64,000 nt of DNA from an uncultured Bacteroidaceae bacterium (GCA_934426255.1 CAKRYD010000004.1:28320-92319), one strand, 5' to 3'. Shown: positions 5,221-48,689, counted from the stretch's first letter. Numbers and translations: made by a program. Notes: generated by a model from the sequence alone, not told the origin.

Positions 5221-5809
5221 TCGTGGGTAGTATTTGTTTTGTATCACGGGCAGAATGGATGCGGCCGGCGTTCTTTTCCAAAAAATCGTGCCAGCCGGAA
5301 TAAGGCCTGGCATGCCTTGCCTGACTGCCCTGCAGATAATGGCAATAGGCGGCGGCCAAAGCGTCTGTGGCATCCATGTAAGGAACGAGCGATGCGGCAT
5401 CGAGATGGAAAATGTGGCGCAACATTTCGGACACTTGCTCTTTTGATGCCGCGCCGTTGCCTGTAAGTGCCATCTTAATCTTTGTCGGTGCGTATTCGAA
5501 GACTTCGATTCCGCTGGTAACCGCAGCCGCTATGGCCACGCCCTGTGCGCGTCCGAGTTTTAGCATGCTCTGTACGTTTTTTCCGTAGAAAGGTGCTTCG
5601 ATAGCCATTGCAGTTGGCGCGAAGGAGCTTATAAGTCCGCTGACGCGCTCATAGATGCGTCCGAGCTTGGCGTGAACGTCTGTACACTTCCTGAGGTCTA
5701 TGACGCCCATGGCTTTGAGTTGGGGTTGGCGACCTTGCATCTTTATCAGGCCATAGCCTAAAATGTTTGTGCCGGGGTCTATTCCCAAATATGTAGCTTC
5801 TTCTGCCAT
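5210..5809 (-). CDS. ruvC: crossover junction endodeoxyribonuclease RuvC
   Basis: YLGIDPGTNILGYGLI is the RuvC N-terminal catalytic Asp motif. The size and the C-terminal DATDALAAAYCH fit RuvC. Confidence 0.9.
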   Translation of the reverse strand: MAEEATYLGIDPGTNILGYGLIKMQGRQPQLKAMGVIDLRKCTDVHAKLGRIYERVSGLISSFAPTAMAIEAPFYGKNVQSMLKLGRAQGVAIAAAVTSGIEVFEYAPTKIKMALTGNGAASKEQVSEMLRHIFHLDAASLVPYMDATDALAAAYCHYLQGSQARHARPYSGWHDFLEKNAGRIHSARDTKQILPTNDN

Positions 5810-5831
5810 TCTGCTCCGTTGTAAACTATGG

Positions 5832-5839
5832 CAAAAATA
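5832..5839 (-). promoter_or_regulatory. -7 box (TATTTTTG on minus strand) upstream of ruvC
   Basis: Plus strand reads caaaaata, 23 nt upstream of the ATG at 5809. Confidence 0.45.
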
Positions 5840-5903
5840 CGAATATATATCGACAAAAGCCCTTTTTGGGCTGTTTATTTGAGACGATGTGGGATTTATT
5901 ACT

Positions 5904-5911
5904 TACCTTTG
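5904..5911 (+). promoter_or_regulatory. -7 box TACCTTTG
   Basis: Exact TAnnTTTG match 17 nt upstream of the ATG at 5928. Confidence 0.5.
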
Positions 5912-5927
5912 CAAACTCAACTTATAA

Positions 5928-6341
5928 ATGAGTTCAATGATGAAGCGTTTAGTTTGTACCGTTGCGCTGCTGATTGGCTGGCTTTGCCTTTTTGCCGCCG
6001 AGCCGCAGGCTGAAATCAAGTTTGACAAGGCTTCCCATAATTTCGGAAGCTTTTCAGAAAGCAATCCGATTGTTTCGTGTATTTTCAAGTTCAAGAATAC
6101 GGGTAAGGCTCCGCTTGTGATTAATCAGGCCGTTGCTTCGTGTGGATGCACGGTACCGACGTTTACCGAGAAACCCATTGCCCCCGGAGATTCGGGGGTG
6201 GTAAAGGTGACGTATAATGGTCAGGGCCGCTATCCGGGGCGTTTCAAAAAAGTGGTAACGGTGATGTCTAACGCCAAGTCGCGTCTCGTGAGGCTCTATA
6301 TCGAGGGCAATATGATCGAGAACGTCAAGAAAAAGGATTGA
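5928..6341 (+). CDS. DUF1573 domain-containing protein
   Basis: Signal peptide, then FKFKNTGKAPLVINQAVASCGCTVP, which is the characteristic DUF1573 SCGCT motif. 137 aa. Confidence 0.75.
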   Translation: MSSMMKRLVCTVALLIGWLCLFAAEPQAEIKFDKASHNFGSFSESNPIVSCIFKFKNTGKAPLVINQAVASCGCTVPTFTEKPIAPGDSGVVKVTYNGQGRYPGRFKKVVTVMSNAKSRLVRLYIEGNMIENVKKKD

Positions 6342-6405
6342 ACGGCTTGCAGGCATCATTTTCTTTTTTTCAGCAGTAACAAGTAACGATTATCTTTTTT
6401 ATTAG

Positions 6406-7458
6406 ATGGATAACATTTATGTCGTAATTATGGCCGGCGGCATAGGCAGCCGCTTTTGGCCGATGAGCAGTGAGGAAATGCCCAAACAGTTCCTCGACAT
6501 CCTTGGCTGTGGCCGCACTCTTTTGCAAATGACGGCAGACCGATTTGCTCCCGTGTGCTCTGCCGACCATATTTGGGTGGTGACTTCAAAAAAATATGCG
6601 CCCATCGTCAGGCAGCAACTGCCGGAAATTCCGGAACAGAACATCTTGAAGGAGCCTTGCAGGCGCAACACGGCGCCTTGCATCGCTTATGTCAGCTGGG
6701 CCATCAAGGCGAAAGACAATAATGCCAATATCGTTATTACGCCAAGCGACCACTTTGTGGCCAATCCCGAAGAGTTTCAAAAAAGCATCAAGTCGTGCTT
6801 GAAGTTCTCTTGCGAGACCGACTCGATTGTTACCATCGGCATCAAGCCCAATCACCCCGAAACGGGATACGGATACATAGAGGCCGACCTTAGTTATTCA
6901 TCGCCCACCAACAGCAACATATACCGCGTGGATTCGTTCAAGGAAAAACCCGATCTGGAGCTTGCCAAGCAGTATATCCGCGAGAGCAATTATTTTTGGA
7001 ACGCCGGCATCTTTATCTGGAACGTCAATACCATTGTCAACGCCTTCCGGGTTTACCAGCCCACGCTCTCGCACATGTTCGAAAACATACGCGACAGCTA
7101 TGGCACCGACAAGGAGCAAGAACTGATCGATGAAATTTATCCCAAGTGCGAAAACATTTCGGTTGACTACGCCATTATGGAAAAAGCCGACGAGATATAT
7201 GTCTATCCGGCCGATTTCGGATGGAGCGACCTGGGCACATGGAGCTCATTGAAAGAGCACGTGAAAAATGATATACACGGAAATGCCAGAATAGGCAGCG
7301 ACATCAATCTTTTTGAAACCAACGACTGCATCGTTCACACCACACAGGAAAAGAAAGTCGTTGTGCAAGGGCTCAACGGGTATATCGTAGCCGAAAAAGA
7401 CGGCATTCTGCTCATTTGCAAGCTGTCGGAAGAACAGCGCATCAAGCTCTTCCACTAA
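6406..7458 (+). CDS. mannose-1-phosphate guanylyltransferase
   Basis: VIMAGGIGSRFWPMS matches the GGxGxRxWPxS signature. 350 aa, with no C-terminal isomerase domain. Confidence 0.85.
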   Translation: MDNIYVVIMAGGIGSRFWPMSSEEMPKQFLDILGCGRTLLQMTADRFAPVCSADHIWVVTSKKYAPIVRQQLPEIPEQNILKEPCRRNTAPCIAYVSWAIKAKDNNANIVITPSDHFVANPEEFQKSIKSCLKFSCETDSIVTIGIKPNHPETGYGYIEADLSYSSPTNSNIYRVDSFKEKPDLELAKQYIRESNYFWNAGIFIWNVNTIVNAFRVYQPTLSHMFENIRDSYGTDKEQELIDEIYPKCENISVDYAIMEKADEIYVYPADFGWSDLGTWSSLKEHVKNDIHGNARIGSDINLFETNDCIVHTTQEKKVVVQGLNGYIVAEKDGILLICKLSEEQRIKLFH

Positions 7459-8344: not shown

Positions 8345-10036
8345 ATGCTTGAGAAATACTTACGACAAACGCACTTTTCATCACAAGAAGATTTCAAGGA
8401 AAATCTGCACATCAACGTTCCCGACAACTTCAACTTCGCTTACGACGTGGTCGATGAATGGGCGCGTATAGAGCCCGACAGAAAAGCTCTGTTGTGGACC
8501 AATGATGAAAACAAGCACAGGCAGTTCACCTTCGCCGAGATGAAGCACTATTCAGACCAAACCGCATCCTATTTCAGCTCATTGGGAATAGGGCGCGGCG
8601 ACATGGTAATGCTCATACTGAAAAGGCGTTACGAATTTTGGTTCTCCATATTGGCACTCCACAAGCTGGGCGCAATATGCATCCCCGCCACACACCTGCT
8701 CACAGACAAAGACATCGAATACCGCTGCCAACGCGCATCCATCAAAGCCATCGTATGCGCCGGCGAAAAGACCATCACCGACCACATAGCAAAAGCCTTG
8801 CCCAACTGCCCCACCGTGGAAAAAGTCATCAGCGTAGGGCCGCTCATACCACCGGGCTTCGAGGATTTCGGCAAAGGCATCGAAAGCGCACCACCATTCA
8901 GGCAGCCCGCCAAAACCAACAGCAACAGCGACCCGTCGCTGCTCTATTTCACCAGCGGCACAACGGGAGAGCCCAAAATGGTAGTCCACGACTTTACCTA
9001 CCCCCTTGGACACATCGTAACCGGAGCCATATGGCACAACCTGCACAAAAGCAGCCTACATCTCACCATAGCCGACACCGGATGGGGCAAAGCCGTATGG
9101 GGAAAACTCTACGGGCAGTGGTTTGTGGGAGCCAACATCTTCGTCTACGACCATCAGAAGTTCACACCCGCCGACATACTGCACAAAATAGAGCAATACC
9201 AGGTCACATCGCTCTGCGCACCGCCCACCGTATTCCGCTTCCTCATCCATGAAGACCTGTCCAAATACAATCTGTCCTCATTGGAATACTGCACCATCGC
9301 AGGCGAAGCACTGAACCCCTCGGTGTTCAACGAATTCAAGCGCCTTACAGGGCTCCAACTCATGGAAGGCTTCGGCCAGACAGAAACAACGCTCACCATC
9401 GGCACCTTTCCGTGGATGAAACCAAAACCGGGCAGCATGGGCGTACCCAATCCGCAATACGACGTAGACCTGATCGACGAAAACGGACGCAGCGTAGAAG
9501 ACGGCGAACAAGGGCAGGTAGTCATACGCACCGGCAAAGGAAAACCCCTCGGCCTATTCAAAGAATACTACCTCGACGACAAACTCACCCGCGAAGCCTG
9601 GCACGACGGCATCTACTATACAGGCGACATAGCCTGGCGCGACGAAGACGGCTACTACTGGTACGTAGGCCGCACCGACGACGTCATTAAAAGTTCGGGC
9701 TATCGCATAGGCCCCTTCGAAGTGGAAAGCGCCGTCATGACACACCCGGCCGTCGTCGAATGCGCCATAACCGGCGTAAAAGATCCCATACGCGGCCAAG
9801 TAGTAAAGGCAACCATCGTGTTAGCAAACGCCTACAAGGAAAAAGCAGGAGAAGCCCTCGCCAAAGACATTCAAAACCACGTCAAGCAAGTGACAGCCCC
9901 CTACAAATATCCGCGTGTGATAGAATTCGTCGACGAACTGCCTAAAACCATCAGCGGCAAGATACGCCGCGTAGATATAAGGGCAAAACAGGAAACCGAC
10001 GAGCCACAAAAGCCAACAGACAACAAACCCGCTTGA
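8345..10036 (+). CDS. AMP-dependent acyl-CoA synthetase (medium-chain/ACSM-like)
   Basis: Adenylate-forming motifs are present: [36 protein letters not shown] and [10 protein letters not shown]. Confidence 0.85.
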
Positions 10037-29407: not shown

Positions 29408-30097
29408 TTACTGCGGCTTCCCTTCTCCTATCTTTAGGCTCAGATGAAAATGACGGGATATGAGCTCCAAATCTTGTACTTTCTGTGTGTTAGAGATATT
29501 GCTGTAAACAAACCATCCGTCACATTCATGTTGCCACACACGTCCAATTTGGGGCGTACGCTGCTGTTTGCTTACAAGTTTAAAGCCTTTCCCATGCATG
29601 ATGTCCAATGCAGCAATTCGTTCAAAGCCAATTCTGCGTAAGGTTTCTACAAAGGTTTCAATGGCAGTCTTACGACATATTACAGTACCATCGGGAAACT
29701 CGACTCTTAATCCTTTTGTTGGATTTTCCACTTTTTTTGTCGGTATATGAGGTCCTACTGGTTCTACGGCTTTGCCTCTCACAACCGGTGTGCTAATTTT
29801 CTTGTCACCAGATGATTTAGGAGTAAGTTGTTTGGCATCTAATATTTCCGTTATTTTGGCTTTTCGAGAAAGTGCCACACTAATCGGATTACCCGGATGG
29901 TACTCTACTACCAGTACCAAATCACGTTGTATTTTAGACAGCAAAGGCTCTACATTCTTTGACATGGCAGGCAGAATTTCCGTCTTGATTAGCTGTTCTT
30001 CCAAATTGTCCACATCTTGTAAAGTCTCCTTATTAAGGGGAAGCCCCAAGTCCTGCAGGTTCTTGATGCTTTCATATAGTTTCTCAAGCTTTGTCAT
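29408..30097 (-). CDS. hypothetical two-domain protein (orf229): helical N-domain, K/P-rich linker, alpha/beta C-domain
   Basis: Intact 229-aa ORF with an ATG start in the AT-rich islet. The linker is TPKSSGDKKISTPVVRGKAVEPVGPHIPTKKVENPTKG. No family recognised. Confidence 0.5.
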   Translation of the reverse strand: MTKLEKLYESIKNLQDLGLPLNKETLQDVDNLEEQLIKTEILPAMSKNVEPLLSKIQRDLVLVVEYHPGNPISVALSRKAKITEILDAKQLTPKSSGDKKISTPVVRGKAVEPVGPHIPTKKVENPTKGLRVEFPDGTVICRKTAIETFVETLRRIGFERIAALDIMHGKGFKLVSKQQRTPQIGRVWQHECDGWFVYSNISNTQKVQDLELISRHFHLSLKIGEGKPQ

Positions 30098-30117
30098 AGT
30101 GTACTATTTTAAATTCT

Positions 30118-30261
30118 TCAAAACAACTTTCTCAAATCCATCGAAAGGAAGCCCTCTGCACCAATGCCTCCATCTCCCACAATGAATGCGGCTTGCGGCT
30201 TGAACATCTTCGGCACTTCAATTCGCTTTTTAATCAATTGATATTCTGCTCTTTTATACAT
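30118..30261 (-). pseudogene. 47-codon remnant resembling the N-terminus of a DUF4143-type AAA ATPase (P-loop destroyed)
   Basis: Own translation gives MYKRAEYQLIKKRIEVPKMFKPQAAFIVGDGGIGAEGFLSMDLRKLF. It follows the pattern M.KR..Y..I.KR..EP..F..VIVGPRQVGKTTL, but GKT is replaced by GAEG. It is below the ORF-track size cutoff. Confidence 0.3.
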
Positions 30262-30555: not shown

Positions 30556-32637
30556 TCATTCTTCGCCATTATCACTTGGATCCTCTCTAAATTCAAATGC
30601 TAATTCAGAAGTCGGAATGCTGCACTCTTTAAACAAGCCTGTTAGTATGCCAATCTTTGTAGCCGTACTATTGTCTGTCCACACATAGATATTTGGTGCT
30701 AATTCTCTTCTCCACGTCTCCGGCTTAGTATGGAATCCACTCTTTTCATTAGCACATAGCCATTCAACCGTAGAACGTTTTTCTAACAGAATATGACTAC
30801 AAACCTGTATAAGCATTTCCTTCCATGTATTGACTGTATAGCGTACATCATGAAGAATGAATGCCTGCAGTTTTTTCCCTGTAAACTCGAAATCTTCGTC
30901 ATCCAAAGACGCTGACTCTACCTCTTGTTTCGTTACTTCAAAACTTGTTGTCGGCATTGGCCATAGCGTCATGAATACTTGCAACAAATTCTGTTGACGT
31001 TCCTTTAGTTCCACCTCTGTCCATTGACTACAAGTTTTCACATAGTTATTCAACCGAAAAGCACTATCCTTGAAGCCTTTCTCCATGTCTCTCTTTTCTA
31101 AAAACGACAAATTGCTGTACTGAGAATTATAACCGGTAAGCGTAAGGTTTGCCATCGTATGCAAATACTGCTGATGGATACGTTCCCAATCTGCTCCTAA
31201 TGCCTTCTTCCACTTGTCTGATAAAGTCTGAGGCATAATGTGTTCAATGGTGATGTTTTTTTCTGTCAATTCTTTTACAATGTCATGACGTTCATTGTTA
31301 TCACGGTTCTCCATTCGTTCAAGTATGAACATACGTTGATTTGTAGGCATCTTATAAACCTGTCGTGACTGAAAGTCACCTTTTACATCTTCGTCTGACG
31401 GAAAAGCTGCAGCCTGTCTCTTCTTCAAGAGTACATAAACAAGCACATCAACGTATAAAGGAACGTTCCTTCCATCTTTCTTGTTTATATGTTTCAATAC
31501 GTCACGGTGCAAAGTTGAAAATACCTTGTTCAAAGCATTTGATGGCAGATTGCAGATAATTCTTCGTGCCCAATAAGCCTCTATCACATCTATCACTTGG
31601 TAAATCTCATTTTCCGGCATTCCAACTTTTGCAGCATAATCAAAGAAAGCCATAAAGAACGGGTAGGCTACTGTAGAGTCTAAAGTTCGCAACTGATTCA
31701 ATTTACGGTTTATCTTTTCAGTCCCGATTTGTACATCATCTATCTGATTATAGATTTTCGCATAATGATACATGTCGGAGAGCAAAGATGCTCTGTCTAT
31801 TCCAACTTTCTCTGCATACTCTTTAAAGATAAAGTAAATCTTGTCAATTCGGCCAATCTTTCCTTGCTTCATTGTGAGATAATCACGCACAAAAGACGTT
31901 GGCTCGTACTTTGTAAACTCCTCAATTGGATTCCAGAAACGAGAATACAAGTCATCCTGCTCTGCCGGTTCCAATGACATTAATAGGTAGTTGCGAATTT
32001 TGTCTGCCTCACTAAGATCAAGACCTGTAGAGTTCAGACTCTCGAAAATCAACTGAGGGTCATCATCCTCATCCAGCCTTATATTGATTACCTCCAGTTT
32101 CTTGATGGTCTCAAAAATCTCATCAACAGTTAGTCCGCAATGGACTATTTTGTCAAAGAAATACTCATAGTTGCGGGTTACATTCGACTCCTTTACATAC
32201 TGCTCTTTTGTCTTATACAGCAAAGCATCAAAAGCCTGCATATCCTTCTTTATTGGCTTCAGCTTAACTTTTCGTTCATCTTCCTGATATTCGTCCACAA
32301 GATAACGCTTGAAAATTTTCTCAACAAGCTTTGCATCTGTAGCATCTATCAGTCCCTCCTTCTTGGCGTTGACCATGGCAATGAGCAGCAATGAAACCGT
32401 TGTGATTCGTTGCTGCCCGTCTATGATGTAACGGTCTTCGGTTCCCGCATGAATACATGACACGATGCTGCCAAAGAAATGACTTCTACGATCGCTTTTG
32501 TGCAGCTTCATCAAGTCTTGAAACAACTGCTCACAATTATCTTCTTTCCAGTCGTAGTTACGCTGATATAATGGTATGATGAACCGTTTGTCAGAGCCAT
32601 CAAAAAATTTTATAAGTGGTTGGGCGTCTCCTTTCAT
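30556..32637 (-). CDS. GmrSD-family nuclease (N-terminal DUF262 ParB-like NTPase plus DUF1524 His-Me finger nuclease) with ~130-aa C-terminal extension
   Basis: DUF262 motifs are FIIPLYQRNYDW (aa 19-30) and IIDGQQRITT (aa 71-80). DUF1524 motifs are ITIEHIMPQ (aa 462-470) and ANLTLTGYN. 693 aa. Confidence 0.85.
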   Translation of the reverse strand: MKGDAQPLIKFFDGSDKRFIIPLYQRNYDWKEDNCEQLFQDLMKLHKSDRRSHFFGSIVSCIHAGTEDRYIIDGQQRITTVSLLLIAMVNAKKEGLIDATDAKLVEKIFKRYLVDEYQEDERKVKLKPIKKDMQAFDALLYKTKEQYVKESNVTRNYEYFFDKIVHCGLTVDEIFETIKKLEVINIRLDEDDDPQLIFESLNSTGLDLSEADKIRNYLLMSLEPAEQDDLYSRFWNPIEEFTKYEPTSFVRDYLTMKQGKIGRIDKIYFIFKEYAEKVGIDRASLLSDMYHYAKIYNQIDDVQIGTEKINRKLNQLRTLDSTVAYPFFMAFFDYAAKVGMPENEIYQVIDVIEAYWARRIICNLPSNALNKVFSTLHRDVLKHINKKDGRNVPLYVDVLVYVLLKKRQAAAFPSDEDVKGDFQSRQVYKMPTNQRMFILERMENRDNNERHDIVKELTEKNITIEHIMPQTLSDKWKKALGADWERIHQQYLHTMANLTLTGYNSQYSNLSFLEKRDMEKGFKDSAFRLNNYVKTCSQWTEVELKERQQNLLQVFMTLWPMPTTSFEVTKQEVESASLDDEDFEFTGKKLQAFILHDVRYTVNTWKEMLIQVCSHILLEKRSTVEWLCANEKSGFHTKPETWRRELAPNIYVWTDNSTATKIGILTGLFKECSIPTSELAFEFREDPSDNGEE

Positions 32638-32639
32638 CG

Positions 32640-33053
32640 TCAGAAAACAGATTTGATATAATTGATTAGTTCTGTATTATTGCAACTTGGAGTCTCAAGA
32701 GATTTTCCACCTTTGAAGCCATGCTTGCACAAATTTTGCTCAGAAAGCATTCTGCCATCATATTCTCCAAGGAGCTTAAGTTTGTAGGTTATATCATTTG
32801 GCGGAGTTTCCACCCAAAATGCTTGGTCTTCACGTTTGCTGTTTTCCTCAACGACTTTCAGCTTGAAACGGACACATCGTTCGTCTGACATGAAAAGATA
32901 CACAACATCATCAATAGATAAATGGGCTCTTCCCATTCTCCAACTGATAAATCCAAGACTATGGATAGCATCAGCATGTCTGCACCTTTTTTTATTGGCA
33001 AAGGCTAACCATGTACGATTGCTTGACATTATATTATCTATTATAGCTTTCAT
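32640..33053 (-). CDS. hypothetical 137-aa protein (orf137), possibly a PUA/EVE-like beta-barrel
   Basis: Intact ORF. Its ATG shares one nt with the Fic stop (TAATG), and its stop is 2 nt from the GmrSD ATG. The pattern TWLAFANKK...ISWRMG...IDDVVYLFMSDERCVRFKLKVVE is reminiscent of PUA-like reader domains. No motif verified. Confidence 0.55.
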   Translation of the reverse strand: MKAIIDNIMSSNRTWLAFANKKRCRHADAIHSLGFISWRMGRAHLSIDDVVYLFMSDERCVRFKLKVVEENSKREDQAFWVETPPNDITYKLKLLGEYDGRMLSEQNLCKHGFKGGKSLETPSCNNTELINYIKSVF

Positions 33054-33601
33054 TATTTTTCATACCCCTCATAGTAATAACTCTGTTCAATCCCCTTGAA
33101 TATCAATTCACGGTTCTCCGTATCGGAAGTGAGATTCTGCGAGAGGAGATAACGCAGTTCGAGGTCGTTGATGGGTGAGCGTTCCATGGCCGAGAGGTAT
33201 TGGTTTTTATCCACATACTGCCAATTAACCACCTTGCCGAGAGAGCGTTTCAGTATCATGTCGAGCCAGATGCGTGTGGAGCGACCGTTGCCTTCCATGA
33301 AAGGATGACACACGTTCATCTCGACATACTTCTCGATAATGTGCTCAAAAGTGTCTTCTGGCATCTTCTCCACGGCGGCGAGGGCGGCTTCAAGATAGAG
33401 AGAATTGGCAAAGCGGAATCCACCCTTGGCTATATTTTTGCCACGAATAACGCCGGCAAACTGGTATAACCCTTCAAACAGATAATGGTGTATCTGCTGA
33501 AGACCTGCCGTCGTGCCAACAGGTATATTGTCTATATCGCCCGACTCGTAGAGGCGGTGTGCATTATCTAACGACTTTTCATCAATCTCTTTTGTTGTCA
33601 T
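33053..33601 (-). CDS. Fic family protein (AMPylase), class-III-like with C-terminal inhibitory motif
   Basis: Canonical Fic motif [12 protein letters not shown]. The C-terminal SYYYEG matches the inhibitory consensus [ST]xxxE[GN] 4 aa from the end. The ATG at 33601 (MTTKEIDEK) is preferred over TTG at 33607. Confidence 0.9.
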
Positions 33602-33675
33602 GATCAATTGAATTGGATTTGTACTACTCGTTTGCCGAAATATTAAGAAAATTCTCGGCCTCTTTCTCTATATAG

Positions 33676-34042
33676 TTATTTTAAGAGTTTTCTGTCACCT
33701 GTATCTTCAAGGATTCTCATTTGTTGGATAGCAATCTGATTGAGTTTTATCAGTTGCTCTGACTGCGACATACCATCGTTGATGAATACAGCGTTGAGGT
33801 TCTCCATGTTCGAGAGGCAGATAAGCTCGTTGATGCTGGCATAATCACGAATAATTGGTGTTATTCAACTGCTCCCATAGGCCAAGATATTCCAATGTGT
33901 TTTTAGAGCATAACCAATTCTTTACCACATCTTTTGGCTCTATAGGATTCTTTTGTCTTGCTATATCTGTAATGCAGATATAATCGACTCCATCTATGGA
34001 TAGAGTCTTTATCGTTTGATTCTTTACAATTATTTTTACCAC
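33676..34042 (-). pseudogene. KilA-N domain protein pseudogene (internal deletion plus frameshift)
   Basis: The N-terminal 65 aa (33845-34042) read KTLSIDGVDYICITDIARQKNPIEPKDVVKNWLCSKNTLEYLGLWEQLNN, a KilA-N pattern. The ORF stops, and the next frame continues as IIRDYASINELICLSNMENLNAVFINDGMSQSEQLIKLNQIAIQQMRIL..., the typical C-terminus of the same family. The central ~150 aa are missing. Confidence 0.55.
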
Positions 34043-34131
34043 AATCTTATACTTCTTATTATACCATTATTATATTTAGGCCGTATAAAACAGGCATTAC
34101 GCAACCAACTTTTCACAGAAATCCTTCAATC

Positions 34132-34302
34132 TTACCTGTGAGTTATCGTTGAATGCTTCTTTTGAGAACTGCAACCTTGGTCAATTTGTAAGTTATTGGT
34201 ACACCTTTTTGATATAGTTGCAGAATCTTTTCCTAACTGTTCGGAAAGCCATTTACTTGTCTGTTTCTTCTCTACTAACACGACTTTTGTCGGTTTATTT
34301 CT
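34132..34302 (-). pseudogene. decayed small XRE-type HTH gene
   Basis: Own translation gives ..KPTKVVLVEKKQTSKWLSEQLGKDSATISKRCTNNLQIDQ.., the helix-turn-helix core of small Bacteroidales XRE regulators. There is no ATG (a stop lies where the start is expected, and a GTG is at 34281). The C-terminal half is out of pattern. Confidence 0.3.
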
Positions 34303-34604: not shown

Positions 34605-34973
34605 TTAGGCTTGCGGGTTGTTTTGCCGCTCCCATTCTTCAAGGGCCTGATGCCAGTCGGTGGTGTCGGCGTTGGCCGCTGCTTCGGCCTGCCGGAGTGC
34701 TTCATCGTTTTGACGGTCGCGCTGGCGTTTGGCTTTCATGTCGGCTATCGTGGCATCGTCGAGAACGAAGATGGCATGGCGGCGGATGGCTTCGTGGAGG
34801 TCACGGGAACCGAAAGCTTGTCCGGGCTGGTTGAAGTCGGCAATGTTGAATTCGTATTTCACACGCAATGTGTGGCGTATTTGTTTTTGCCTTAACCGGT
34901 TGGCGGTGTTTTTCAAATCGAGCAGACGGGCTATTTCCTTGATTTCGTTTTCCGAGAATTTGTTTCTTCCCAT
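34605..34973 (-). CDS. hypothetical 122-aa protein (orf122) translationally coupled to cdaA
   Basis: The ATG at 34973 is 1 nt after the cdaA stop (34975-34977). GC content matches the core genome. Charged helical sequence with the acidic, Trp-rich tail DTTDWHQALEEWERQ. Confidence 0.55.
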   Translation of the reverse strand: MGRNKFSENEIKEIARLLDLKNTANRLRQKQIRHTLRVKYEFNIADFNQPGQAFGSRDLHEAIRRHAIFVLDDATIADMKAKRQRDRQNDEALRQAEAAANADTTDWHQALEEWERQNNPQA

Positions 34974-46607: not shown

Positions 46608-48689
46608 TCAGAATTTCACTTTGCGGCTTTGCCCGTCCTGCCGCTGAATGTAGATGCCTTTCGAGGGGCGGTCGACGGCGTTGCCCTTGAGGTCGTACCA
46701 ACGGGTTTCCCGGTGTGTGCCTGCGGTGGTTGTCGGGCTGTCAACGCCTGTATAGACGCCTTCGGTGATGTTGAAGTTTTTCCAGAAAAGGGTGGAGGCA
46801 TAGGCCTCGCGGCTGCCTTGGGGCACATAGAGGGTGGCTTCGTAGCTGCCCCATGTTTCGGCGTCGATGGCCGGAGGCACAGCGGTGCGCAGGGTGATGT
46901 GCCTGATGGCGGGCGAAGCCGTGAATGTGAGGTTGGCGATGGAGGTGAGCGACGACGGAAGATCTACGCTTTCGAGTCTGGGACAATTGAAATCGCAGTT
47001 GTCCAGGCGACTGGTGTTTTCACCGACGACGAGGTGGCGGAAATTGCCGGAGAAATACATGGCGTTTACGTCCGACATACCGTTGATATAGAGCGTGTCG
47101 AGCTGCTCGCAGCCGTCGAAGAGCTTGAAACCGAACATGCTGAATTCCGTCAGTTCGATGCGCACGTTGCGCAGGGAGCTGCATTGGGCGAATGCGCCGC
47201 TCAGTATGGTTTCGATGTTCGAGGTAATGTTGGCTTCGGTGAGCGAGTTGCATCGGGCGAAAGCCTCTTCGCCGATATGGTCGATGTTTTCCCAGTCAAT
47301 ATCCTTGAGACCGGTGCATCCGTCAAACACATTAGCACCTATGTAGATGTATTCACTGTCCGGGAAACGTATGCCGACAAGGTTGGTCTGGCCGGCAAAG
47401 GCGTAGTCGGTGATGCGTCGGGTGCCTTCTTTGAGCTCGAACACGGTATTGGGCTGCATTTCGCCCTTGTAGACGAACAGTTGGTCGGCTACGTAGACGG
47501 GACCGTCGGGCAGGTTTTTCTCCCAGGCCGTGCCCTTGAAGGAATTGTACCTGACCGATATCAATTCTTCGGGGAATATGATGTTTTTCAGGGCGGTGCA
47601 ATTTTCAAAGGCCTGCTCACGTATAACGATGTTGTTGGGTATTCTGACGCTGACGAGGCTGCTGCAGTCCTTGAAGGCGTATTTGCCTATTTCGATCAAG
47701 CCATCGGTAAATTCCAAGTTGGTGAGCGATGTGCAGCCTTCGAAGGCCGACTCGGTGATGCTCCAGATATTTTGGGTGATGATGACGCTTTCGAGACTTT
47801 TGAGGCCCTTGAACCACACCGGTACATCGCAAAGGTCGAGGTAGAGCCTGCGGATGGCAGAGCAGCCTTTAAAGAGATTGACATCTTCCCACTGGGGCTG
47901 GAAAATGTCGTTGAAAATGAGACTGACATCGGTGAGCGACGTGCACTGGTCGAAGGCATCGGCCGGCGCAGTGAAGTCTTCATTGTCAATGACGAGTGTC
48001 TTGAGCGAGGTGGAGCCTTTGAACCAGTTGCCGATGGCCGGTGCATAGATGGTGAGGCTTTCGGGACGGGTGCCGGTAAAGGCATCGTCGCCCACTTCGG
48101 TGAGCGAAGAGGGCAACGTGAGGGCCGTGAGCCGGTTGCAATCCATGAGGGCGCGGGCGGCTATGCTTGTTGTCCCTTCGGCGATGGTCAGCGCGCCCAG
48201 GCGGGCCGCCGGACAGAAAACGAGCTCGGTGGTGTCATTATTATATAGCACCCCATCGATGGTGGCATAGGCGGAATTGCCTGCGGCCACGGTAAGCGAA
48301 TGCAGCGAGGTGCAGCCTTTGAACAGGTCGGCATGGAGCTGCGTGATGCCGTTGGGCAGGGTGAGCGAGGTGAGAGCCGTGTTGCCGGCAAAGGCGGCAT
48401 CATCGATTGCCGTGACGGGCAGGCTGTGGCCGTCGTGCGTGACTTGGGCGGGGAGCGTGGCTTCACCTTTGAGCTCTTGAGCCGACTTGACGGCCAGTGC
48501 AGACTGCGCTTCGTCGAGATAGCGGTAGGTGATGCCTTCGAGGGTGAATGAGGTTTCGCCGGAAGTGCTTGTCATGGCTGTCGGAAACTCTTGGAGGGCC
48601 GGTTGCTGGCTTGCAGAACCTACGGCCGGCAGGGCGGTGCAGCACATGGCGGCAATGCCCAAAGTGAGGAGTCGTGGCAGTGTTGGCAT
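46608..48689 (-). CDS. BspA-type leucine-rich-repeat surface protein with T9SS-like C-terminal sorting domain
   Basis: Signal peptide, then more than 15 degenerate ~23-aa repeats (..I.IP.SVT.IG..AF.GC.SL..). The C-terminal TRWYDLKGNAVDRPSKGIYIQRQDGQSRKVKF resembles a T9SS CTD. Confidence 0.75.
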   Translation of the reverse strand: MPTLPRLLTLGIAAMCCTALPAVGSASQQPALQEFPTAMTSTSGETSFTLEGITYRYLDEAQSALAVKSAQELKGEATLPAQVTHDGHSLPVTAIDDAAFAGNTALTSLTLPNGITQLHADLFKGCTSLHSLTVAAGNSAYATIDGVLYNNDTTELVFCPAARLGALTIAEGTTSIAARALMDCNRLTALTLPSSLTEVGDDAFTGTRPESLTIYAPAIGNWFKGSTSLKTLVIDNEDFTAPADAFDQCTSLTDVSLIFNDIFQPQWEDVNLFKGCSAIRRLYLDLCDVPVWFKGLKSLESVIITQNIWSITESAFEGCTSLTNLEFTDGLIEIGKYAFKDCSSLVSVRIPNNIVIREQAFENCTALKNIIFPEELISVRYNSFKGTAWEKNLPDGPVYVADQLFVYKGEMQPNTVFELKEGTRRITDYAFAGQTNLVGIRFPDSEYIYIGANVFDGCTGLKDIDWENIDHIGEEAFARCNSLTEANITSNIETILSGAFAQCSSLRNVRIELTEFSMFGFKLFDGCEQLDTLYINGMSDVNAMYFSGNFRHLVVGENTSRLDNCDFNCPRLESVDLPSSLTSIANLTFTASPAIRHITLRTAVPPAIDAETWGSYEATLYVPQGSREAYASTLFWKNFNITEGVYTGVDSPTTTAGTHRETRWYDLKGNAVDRPSKGIYIQRQDGQSRKVKF

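Follow-up and report, generated by a model that had tools for sequence, protein, structure and literature searches.

Do three genes that are packed on one strand with almost no space between them also work as one defence system? This question is raised by a stretch of 64,000 nt of DNA from an uncultured Bacteroidaceae bacterium (GCA_934426255.1 CAKRYD010000004.1:28320-92319; the whole stretch is called the window in the following), in which a gene for a Fic AMPylase, a small gene named orf137 and a gene for a nuclease of the GmrSD type follow each other on the minus strand (Table 1). In a first-pass annotation these genes had been taken as a translationally coupled triad and as a candidate for a composite defence system, and its coordinates, gene spacing, AT-richness and protein motifs were borne out by translation, Pfam searches and GC content. 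However, by comparing the locus with related loci we observed that the three-gene composite is not a real unit: the Fic gene was inserted 5' of the other two in one species, whereas orf137 and the GmrSD gene are a conserved two-gene module. This module is non-obligate, as each of its genes is also found intact alone. Enzymes of the GmrSD family are seen as single polypeptides that suffice by themselves, and little is understood of what sets the modified-DNA target of each of them. If the product of orf137 acts as a reader in trans, as proposed below, the pair would offer a handle on how the specificity of type IV restriction is set and swapped.

We scanned one genome per GTDB species with orf137 as the seed and obtained 76 loci, all but one of them from Bacteroidales, in which 51 stand-alone full-length orf137 homologues could be assessed. 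An intact GmrSD gene of the same clade (79-98% identity) was found directly downstream of orf137 in 19 of these 51 loci, and GmrSD remnants or an internally deleted copy were found at this position in 4 more. Both genes lie 2-3 nt apart in 16 of the 19 pairs, and in the other 3 the distance is 39 nt; in the window, 2 nt separate the orf137 stop codon TGA (32642-32640) from the GmrSD ATG. Genomes carrying the pair are of the Prevotellaceae, Bacteroidaceae, Paludibacteraceae, Lentimicrobiaceae and Muribaculaceae type, and across them the pairwise distances of orf137 and GmrSD correlate with r=0.84, a value that was reached in 0 of 5000 Mantel permutations. The genes around the pair change from locus to locus while the pair stays. 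A type I-like methyltransferase (MTase) together with HsdS and an AAA_21 ATPase lies upstream of orf137 or of the pair in ~12 loci, an ATPase_2/STAND protein is among the changing neighbours in ~14 loci, and further changing neighbours are AAA_15 with DUF4435 and a helix-turn-helix (HTH) gene, RhuM, an MksE-like pair and Thoeris-like genes. When GmrSD was used for the look-ups instead, a 129-aa gene was observed 2 nt upstream in 4 of 7 sequence clusters. Concerning mobile elements, the search of plasmids for orf137 gave no match, while an annotated phage collection contained one remote orf137-like match with 32% identity in a gut phage (MT835483.1, 26633-26968). Two contigs were found in IMG/VR, one with the reader-GmrSD pair (L157, UViG_3300014750_000018) and one with the reader alone (L158).

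Next, we investigated what kind of protein orf137 encodes. Sequence searches of Pfam, NCBIfam and PADLOC gave no match, and in Pfam only a spurious similarity to Toxin-JAB1 (0.06) was seen up to an E-value of 0.1. An AlphaFold2 (AF2) model based on 23 homologues reached a predicted local distance difference test (pLDDT) value of 85.6 and a predicted template modelling score (pTM) of 0.80. When this model was compared to the PDB with Foldseek, almost all of the top 50 matches were EVE, ASCH or YTH domains or VcaM4I, with probabilities up to 1.00. The matched EVE structures comprise 1zce, 2p5d, PH1033 and human THYN1 with DNA containing 5-methylcytosine (5mC); the others are ASCH domains, YTH domains with N6-methyladenine (m6A) and the EVE-HNH enzyme VcaM4I. 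In a viral library the matches were EVE, ASCH and DUF3850 proteins. The model supports a PUA-like (EVE/ASCH/YTH) fold class for orf137 but no membership in a single one of these families. Nine residues are invariant in the homologues (W15, F18, W38, F54, D57, E58, R59, W80 and Y90), and these aromatic and charged residues are the sole, indirect hint at a predicted pocket for a modified base.

Further information came from larger proteins that contain an orf137-like domain. By searching 1.84 billion representative proteins with a profile we obtained 381 relatives, and 40 of the best 150 exceed 250 aa. We scanned 30 multidomain relatives with Pfam and found an HNH or HNH_2 module in 12, a restriction-endonuclease fold (NOV_C, Tox-REase-9) in 5, a McrB-type AAA_5 module in 6, HARE-HTH in 1 and no recognisable partner module in 6, so that the orf137-like domain is fused to nuclease or McrB modules in 23 of the 30. 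Fusions of the type AlbA_2-reader-HNH were also present at two genome loci (L057 and L064). In the McrB-like fusions a sub-threshold Pfam EVE match (17-19 bits, cut-off 23) lies exactly on the orf137-like segment. In five distant relatives (P0239, P0245, P0255, P0257 and P0269) the orf137-like domain stands at the N-terminus of a McrB-type AAA_5 GTPase, in the place of the sensor. Such fusions of a reader with a nuclease or with McrB are the layout of restriction enzymes that depend on modification (type IV; PMC6765204, PMC7897488, PMC7641849). The earlier suggestion of orf137 as a possible nucleic-acid reader is well supported by both the predicted PUA-like fold and the fusions to nucleases, and we refer to the gene as that of a putative reader.

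The partner of orf137 could be assigned with more detail. Its product carries DUF262/GmrSD_N (PF03235) at residues 10-219 (1.5e-35) and the DUF1524/GmrSD_C His-Me finger (PF07510) at residues 412-553 (2e-27). The motifs IPLYQRNYDW and EHIMPQ...NLTL are found in the translation, and the residues D73-G-Q-Q-R77, E465, H466 and N497 do not vary among 20 homologues. PADLOC models matched by the protein are Orf5 (4.6e-161), HEC-06 (2e-63) and also mREase_IV. Judged by these domains and motifs, the window nuclease is a GmrSD-family type IV restriction enzyme and is predicted to be modification-dependent. At least 8000 homologues exist, the best 120 of which are all at least 80% identical; the AF2 model, built on a shallow alignment of 20 sequences that are all at least 80% identical, was unusable (pLDDT 41.8). 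With the single-chain GmrSD family (Eco94GmrSD, BrxU/HEC-05, HEC-06 and SspE) the protein shares the combination of DUF262 (DGQQR) and DUF1524 in one chain as well as the embedding in restriction-modification (R-M) and defence loci that is known for this family. For the GmrSD-like HEC-06, defence by a single protein was validated by experiment, and its gene frequently lies inside R-M loci (bioRxiv 10.1101/2024.01.29.577857). In contrast to that family, the 693-aa window protein has a conserved C-terminal extension of ~140 aa (about residues 554-693) and no sequence-detectable relative in the PDB, and its clade is often preceded by a dedicated gene for the putative reader. A Pfam scan of residues 555-693 alone gave no family match, and phmmer found no relative of the GmrSD among the PDB sequences. 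A second open reading frame (ORF) of 693 aa in the window (46608-48689, minus strand) was ruled out as a further GmrSD, as it is unrelated and its equal length is coincidental.

Based on these observations we propose that orf137 would bind a flipped-out modified base in invading DNA and would then serve in trans as the targeting or specificity subunit of the GmrSD from the gene 2 nt downstream. The DNA would be cleaved by the DUF1524 His-Me finger of GmrSD, governed by the DUF262 NTPase domain, and the pair would represent a type IV restriction module with the reader as a separate polypeptide instead of a fused domain. Taken as one statement, targeting by a trans reader together with cleavage by GmrSD appears moderately probable to us. 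Since several lineages have an intact GmrSD but no reader, and GmrSD-like proteins act as single proteins, an accessory role of the reader is likelier than that of an antidote or of an indispensable subunit; GmrSD probably works by itself, with the reader widening or redirecting its targets. As to the modification, a C5-cytosine MTase is encoded two genes downstream of the pair in the relatives of the window, and N6-adenine type I MTases occur in ~12 loci. Because the pair coexists with these host MTases, its target should not be the ordinary host N6-methyladenine (6mA) or 5mC at those sites, and we infer that it is more probably a hypermodification of the phage type.

Several observations weigh against this proposal. 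Curated sequence models of EVE, ASCH and YTH domains do not match orf137, a profile search of the PDB sequences with orf137 returned only noise, and the structural similarity to PUA-like domains is modest (E-values of 1.7e-3 to 0.1, template modelling scores of 0.35-0.62, with 0.55-0.62 for the best matches, and ~10% identity). ASCH-type domains may also be RNA-directed enzymes. With regard to synteny, in 3 of the 7 GmrSD clusters (81-83% identity) an intact 693-aa GmrSD is present without orf137 or with a 3' remnant of it only (L167 with a remnant at 1298-1433, L179-181 and L185-187), and 204 contigs carry one such GmrSD sequence (P0311). At one further place (L170) a disrupted orf129 (5609-5998) lies beside an intact GmrSD gene. 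Moreover, around half of the homologues of orf137 adjoin different genes instead, among them genes on the opposite strand, and the co-divergence of both proteins could merely reflect a joint horizontal transfer of neighbouring genes.

The genes found downstream of orf137 in place of GmrSD include GIY-YIG/DUF4357 (PDC-S14), DUF6642 and AAA_14-DUF4143. With these and the fused relatives in mind, we tentatively consider a broader reading, in which the orf137 family would consist of uncatalogued PUA-like readers that serve as an exchangeable, trans-acting specificity subunit before different effectors; this is possible but doubtful at present. The effectors would be the separate GmrSD, the GIY-YIG/DUF4357 nuclease, a 197-aa protein and others, and in fused form HNH, PD-(D/E)XK-type and McrB modules, an assignment that we make with the same caution. 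If true, an exchangeable reader would define a two-component type IV restriction in gut Bacteroidales. A pairing of GmrSD with a separate PUA-like reader would itself bring an unannotated reader family into the catalogues of defence systems. The 197-aa protein was observed as a replacement of GmrSD after orf137 in four loci (L008, L019, L021 and L060, in the last at ~6313-6906); it has no match in Pfam or PADLOC and could be a candidate for an alternative effector partner.

For better evaluation of the trans-reader proposal we compared it with other explanations of the pair. In one of them orf137 would be an immunity factor or a negative regulator of GmrSD, which could for instance protect modified DNA of the host itself or hold the nuclease back, or else an ASCH-like enzyme acting on RNA or nucleotides. 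The upstream position and tight coupling are indeed typical of antitoxin and immunity genes, coexisting host MTases (type I MTase-HsdS in ~12 loci, the C5 MTase in relatives) could demand self-protection, and ASCH proteins are among the best structural matches of orf137. However, the widespread lineages with an intact GmrSD and no orf137, such as that of P0311, are unlike what an essential antidote would show, and the fusion in cis to nuclease or McrB modules in the 23 relatives is the usual architecture of sensor domains in modification-dependent enzymes and atypical of inhibitors (PMC6765204, PMC7897488). We consider this explanation unlikely. Quite unlikely, in our judgement, is also that orf137 and GmrSD are functionally unlinked and represent independent single-gene cargo, co-mobilised in cassettes embedded in R-M loci. 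Each of the two genes is found intact alone, GmrSD-family enzymes are usually single polypeptides, and KilA-N, Fic, AAA_14-DUF4143 and RhuM are independent single-gene PADLOC candidates that shuffle freely. On the other hand, that 16 of the 19 pairs share the narrow spacing and that both proteins co-diverge strongly over several families, with surroundings that change, argues for a link, and the logic of a reader plus a nuclease equals that of the fused relatives and of the reported EVE-GmrSD fusions.

The proposed trans-reader module can be placed beside systems that are already described. Its closest counterparts are the EVE-HNH enzymes VcaM4I and TspA15I and the rare EVE-GmrSD fusions, which likewise combine a PUA-like sensor for a flipped modified base with a His-Me/HNH nuclease (PMC6765204, PMC7897488, PMC7641849). 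In contrast to these enzymes, the sensor encoded by orf137 is a separate polypeptide of 129-137 aa encoded 2 nt upstream that has no Pfam EVE, ASCH or YTH match, and its partner in the window is a full GmrSD with the DUF262 NTPase domain. EVE-HNH, EVE-PD-(D/E)XK, EVE-McrB and 'rare fusions to homologs of GmrSD' have been described before (PMC7641849). To McrBC with an N-terminal EVE or other reader on McrB there is a likeness in that the orf137-like domain occupies the McrB sensor position in distant relatives; unlike McrBC, the window has neither McrB nor McrC and the effector is GmrSD. The neighbours of the pair, in the window and at related loci, match PADLOC guilt-by-embedding candidates strongly (PDC-S04 Fic, PDC-S22 KilA-N, PDC-S01 AAA_14-DUF4143 and PDC-S05 RhuM), whereas orf137 itself is in no PADLOC, Pfam or NCBIfam library. 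A PADLOC check had been suggested for all three proteins: Fic (PDC-S04) and GmrSD (Orf5/HEC-06) were recognised in this way and orf137 was not. What is uncatalogued here is the orf137 family of putative readers together with its wide occurrence as a separate gene before GmrSD and a few other putative effectors.

In order to see whether the Fic gene belongs to the module we turned to its type. The active-site motif HxFx(D/E)GNGRxxR is present in the translation, and the Pfam Fic family is matched at 1.4e-11. The protein scores 294.4 bits against the NmFic equivalog NF046029 of NCBIfam (cut-off 230) and is 74% identical over 181 aa to NmFic of Neisseria meningitidis (PDB 2G03), while it stays far under the cut-offs of the equivalogs for VbhT (48 vs 800) and E. 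coli Fic (51 vs 181). Its C-terminal SYYYEGYEK is the same as in NmFic and fits the inhibitory helix motif (S/T)xxxE(G/N), located on the same polypeptide, and in the alignment Y183, E186 and Y188 of NmFic have equivalents in the C-terminus of the window protein. A C-terminally carried (S/T)xxxE(G/N) helix is the defining feature of class III Fic proteins (PMC3667792). From these comparisons the window Fic is an NmFic orthologue of class III that is predicted to be self-inhibited, and not, as had been thought, a Fic of the FicT/VbhT type. The equivalog match and the identical inhibitory helix imply that it requires no partner protein. NmFic AMPylates GyrB once its autoinhibition is relieved, and its access to GyrB is controlled by the inhibitory helix, by tetramerisation and by auto-AMPylation of Y183/Y188 (PMC12894286). 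With NmFic (PDB 2G03, 3S6A) the window protein thus has the identity, the FIC motif and the helix in common; it differs in coming from a Prevotellaceae gut bacterium and in the position of its gene, immediately before a restriction cassette within a defence island. NmFic itself has been characterised both in structure and in biochemistry. Two candidate roles were rejected. orf137 is no antitoxin of this Fic, which is of class III, and orf137 lacks an (S/T)xxxE(G/N) motif; a class I FicTA system (FicT/VbhT type) was ruled out by the KilA-N remnant that lies upstream of Fic, by the absence of (S/T)xxxE(G/N) from orf137 and by the low VbhT and E. coli Fic scores.

We then analyzed a set of 80 metagenome loci with a Fic gene 72-96% identical to that of the window. 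Neither orf137 nor the GmrSD clade of the window was found in any of them (0 of 80). A restriction or modification gene lies directly downstream on the same strand in at least 17 loci of this set, namely a type IIG-like MTase-S fusion (8), a type III Mod-like gene (5), a type ISP gene (1), another N6-MTase (1) or a GmrSD gene (2), the last two (L085 and L098) being distant with 24% identity. In 10 loci a fragment of a MobA/VirD2-type relaxase adjoins Fic and in others housekeeping genes do so; ABC-F and P-type ATPase genes are further variable neighbours. Homologues with unrelated neighbours and without conserved synteny are therefore what we observed for Fic, though not for the orf137-GmrSD pair. 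By blastn the homologous stretch starts at 33671 and ends precisely on the final base of the Fic stop codon, 33053, in about a dozen loci, and the sequence past the stop codon differs at every locus compared. As the homology is limited to the leader and the ORF and the sequence beyond differs, the Fic gene is a self-contained cassette that was repeatedly placed flush against the next gene. For this reason the packing of genes alone defines no system here, and in defence islands tight packing, even with overlapping stop and start codons, is by itself no proof of one. Two side observations concern other genes near Fic. In 11 loci (of the set L077-L125) an 86-aa HTH_3 protein precedes the NmFic-type gene. 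Another Fic family (~373 aa, Fic plus winged HTH) turns up repeatedly around orf137 homologues at places that vary, after GmrSD in L003, L020 and L061, after the 197-aa protein in L008 and upstream in L041, which is consistent with Fic genes as common cargo of defence islands and not as specific partners.

The junction between Fic and orf137 points in the same direction. The last A of the Fic stop codon TAA (33055-33053) is also the A of an ATG, giving TAATG, on which the assumption of translational coupling had been built. This sequence is present as described. However, nearly all of the 194 close homologues of orf137 are ~129 aa long and start at the second Met of the window protein (M9, ATG 33029), homology with other orf137 loci begins only at this ATG in the DNA as well as in the protein, and residues 1-10 of the orf137 model are disordered with pLDDT <50. 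Given the family start at ATG 33029 and the disordered residues 1-10, there is no firm basis for a translational coupling between Fic and orf137, and the true spacing of the two genes may be a 23-nt spacer (33052-33030) without a TAATG overlap. The base composition agrees with a boundary at this site. As had been noted, all three genes are more AT-rich than the flanking clpC-like gene (GC 0.491) and cdaA (0.515), and they are also more AT-rich than the entire window (0.508), but with a GC of 0.468 Fic is markedly less AT-rich than orf137 (0.377) and GmrSD (0.397), so that GC steps down at the Fic/orf137 junction. Across ~29.0-34.5 kb the GC content is 0.35-0.45, with ~0.50-0.53 to either side. 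In the lineage of the window the Fic cassette would supply a promoter and co-transcribe the pair without any mechanistic coupling; that Fic probably provides this promoter follows from the pair having no conserved upstream leader of its own. A scan of 29-35 kb for sigma-70 promoters and terminators yielded promoter-like sites at no more than the frequency in shuffled sequence, and such a scan is uninformative for promoters of Bacteroidales.

The arrangement of all three genes was found only in the species of the window (L001, L159-L166), always at the same cdaA locus with a common glyS-FKBP-folP-cdaA-orf122 flank and proteins of 97-98% identity. An NmFic-type gene lies upstream of orf137 in 1 of the 76 orf137-seeded loci, and this locus is L001, with proteins 97% identical. 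A GmrSD cluster 98% identical to that of the window comprises 23 contigs, and the eight places shown all have the same arrangement, in the order glyS-FKBP-folP-cdaA-orf122-(Dam fragment)-KilA-N-Fic-orf137-GmrSD-AAA_14/DUF4143-C5 MTase-XcyI-like restriction endonuclease (REase). One arrangement across this cluster indicates one insertion site in one lineage. The composite reading, in which restriction would be joined to an abortive arrest by Fic or the nuclease would be controlled by AMPylation, at least in this lineage, can point to three contiguous genes on one strand with spacings of 0-23 nt and 2 nt, to their staying together in all 20+ contigs of the species, to the NmFic-type genes directly 5' of restriction genes in the 17 or more loci (among them the distant GmrSD genes) and to the status of this Fic type as a PADLOC defence candidate; yet with a single origin at one chromosomal site, no co-occurrence outside the species in the 76 orf137 and 80 Fic loci, a cassette that ends at its stop codon with a GC step behind it, a self-inhibited class III Fic that needs no partner and downstream partners too diverse for a specific protein-protein mechanism, we consider it very improbable. 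The pair was thus the part of the proposed triad that stood, by its 2-nt spacing and co-divergence, while the membership of Fic, confined to one species, fell, and nothing was found in support of a nuclease controlled by AMPylation.

A growth-arresting Fic beside restriction genes is already an untested candidate in PADLOC (PDC-S04; bioRxiv 10.1101/2024.01.29.577857), which the window Fic matches at 4e-91. PDC-S04 is a single-gene candidate derived from guilt-by-embedding in R-M, BREX and DISARM loci and is itself untested (bioRxiv 10.1101/2024.01.29.577857). As a weaker addition to the broader reading with exchangeable readers, the repeated occurrence of the NmFic cassette directly before restriction genes may be the sign of a co-regulated layer of growth arrest.

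Table 1. Coordinates of the genes and other features at the locus (positions counted from the first nucleotide of the window)
Feature	Position	Strand	Remarks
Fic gene	33601-33053	-	182 aa counted from the ATG
orf137	33053-32640	-	137 aa; likely 129 aa from the ATG at 33029
GmrSD-type nuclease gene	32637-30556	-	693 aa
Lineage-specific A/T-rich Fic/orf137 junction	33030-33052	-	codes for 8 N-terminal residues that only the 137-aa reading has
Conserved 70-nt 5' leader moving with the Fic ORF	33602-33671	-	blastn vs the 80 metagenome Fic loci
Decayed KilA-N gene	33675-34042	-	65-aa N-terminal ORF; KilA-N 2.2e-5, PADLOC PDC-S22 8e-21
Deletion scar	30074-30218	-	matches the 3' end of, and the sequence just past, the AAA_14+DUF4143 gene of relatives
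orf229	29408-30097	-	in the AT-rich island, 458 nt downstream of GmrSD
orf122	34605-34973	-	122 aa, no family match; 1 nt after the cdaA stop

Finally, we analyzed the surroundings of the three genes. The locus is best explained as a small and partly decayed defence island of ~29.3-34.6 kb between cdaA-orf122 and the clpC-like gene, with the decayed KilA-N gene, NmFic, the reader-GmrSD pair and the AAA_14-DUF4143 scar as independent cargo. In the relatives (L001, L159-L166) an intact 266-aa KilA-N gene and a Dam-like fragment are found at the spot of the decayed gene, and where L001 has ~1 kb, the window has a replacement of 312 bp (33853-34164). On the other side of the pair, the relatives have a gene for an AAA_14+DUF4143 ATPase after GmrSD (PADLOC PDC-S01, 2.7e-183). 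The region 8854-9875 of L001 is absent from the window, whose positions 30218-30074 match L001 at 9876-10021. Beyond 30074 both sequences diverge completely, and the C5 MTase and the XcyI-like type II R-M genes of the relatives have no counterpart in the window. No tRNA gene, as a signature of an integration site, was found in the window.

Two small genes at the edges of the island deserve mention. orf229 belongs to a large unannotated family with 1068 homologues and is absent from this position in the closest relatives of the window. In a distant protein (P0253) its C-terminal domain (~100 aa) is fused to an orf137-like reader domain. orf229 was ruled out as a disguised orf137-like reader, as it has no similarity to orf137, and so were its relatives of ~350 aa as carriers of a reader, since they duplicate orf229's own C-terminal domain of ~100 aa. 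At the opposite edge, orf122 is GC-rich like the core genome and is kept together with cdaA in the relatives, so that it probably belongs to the core genome as a partner of cdaA, not to the cargo of the island.

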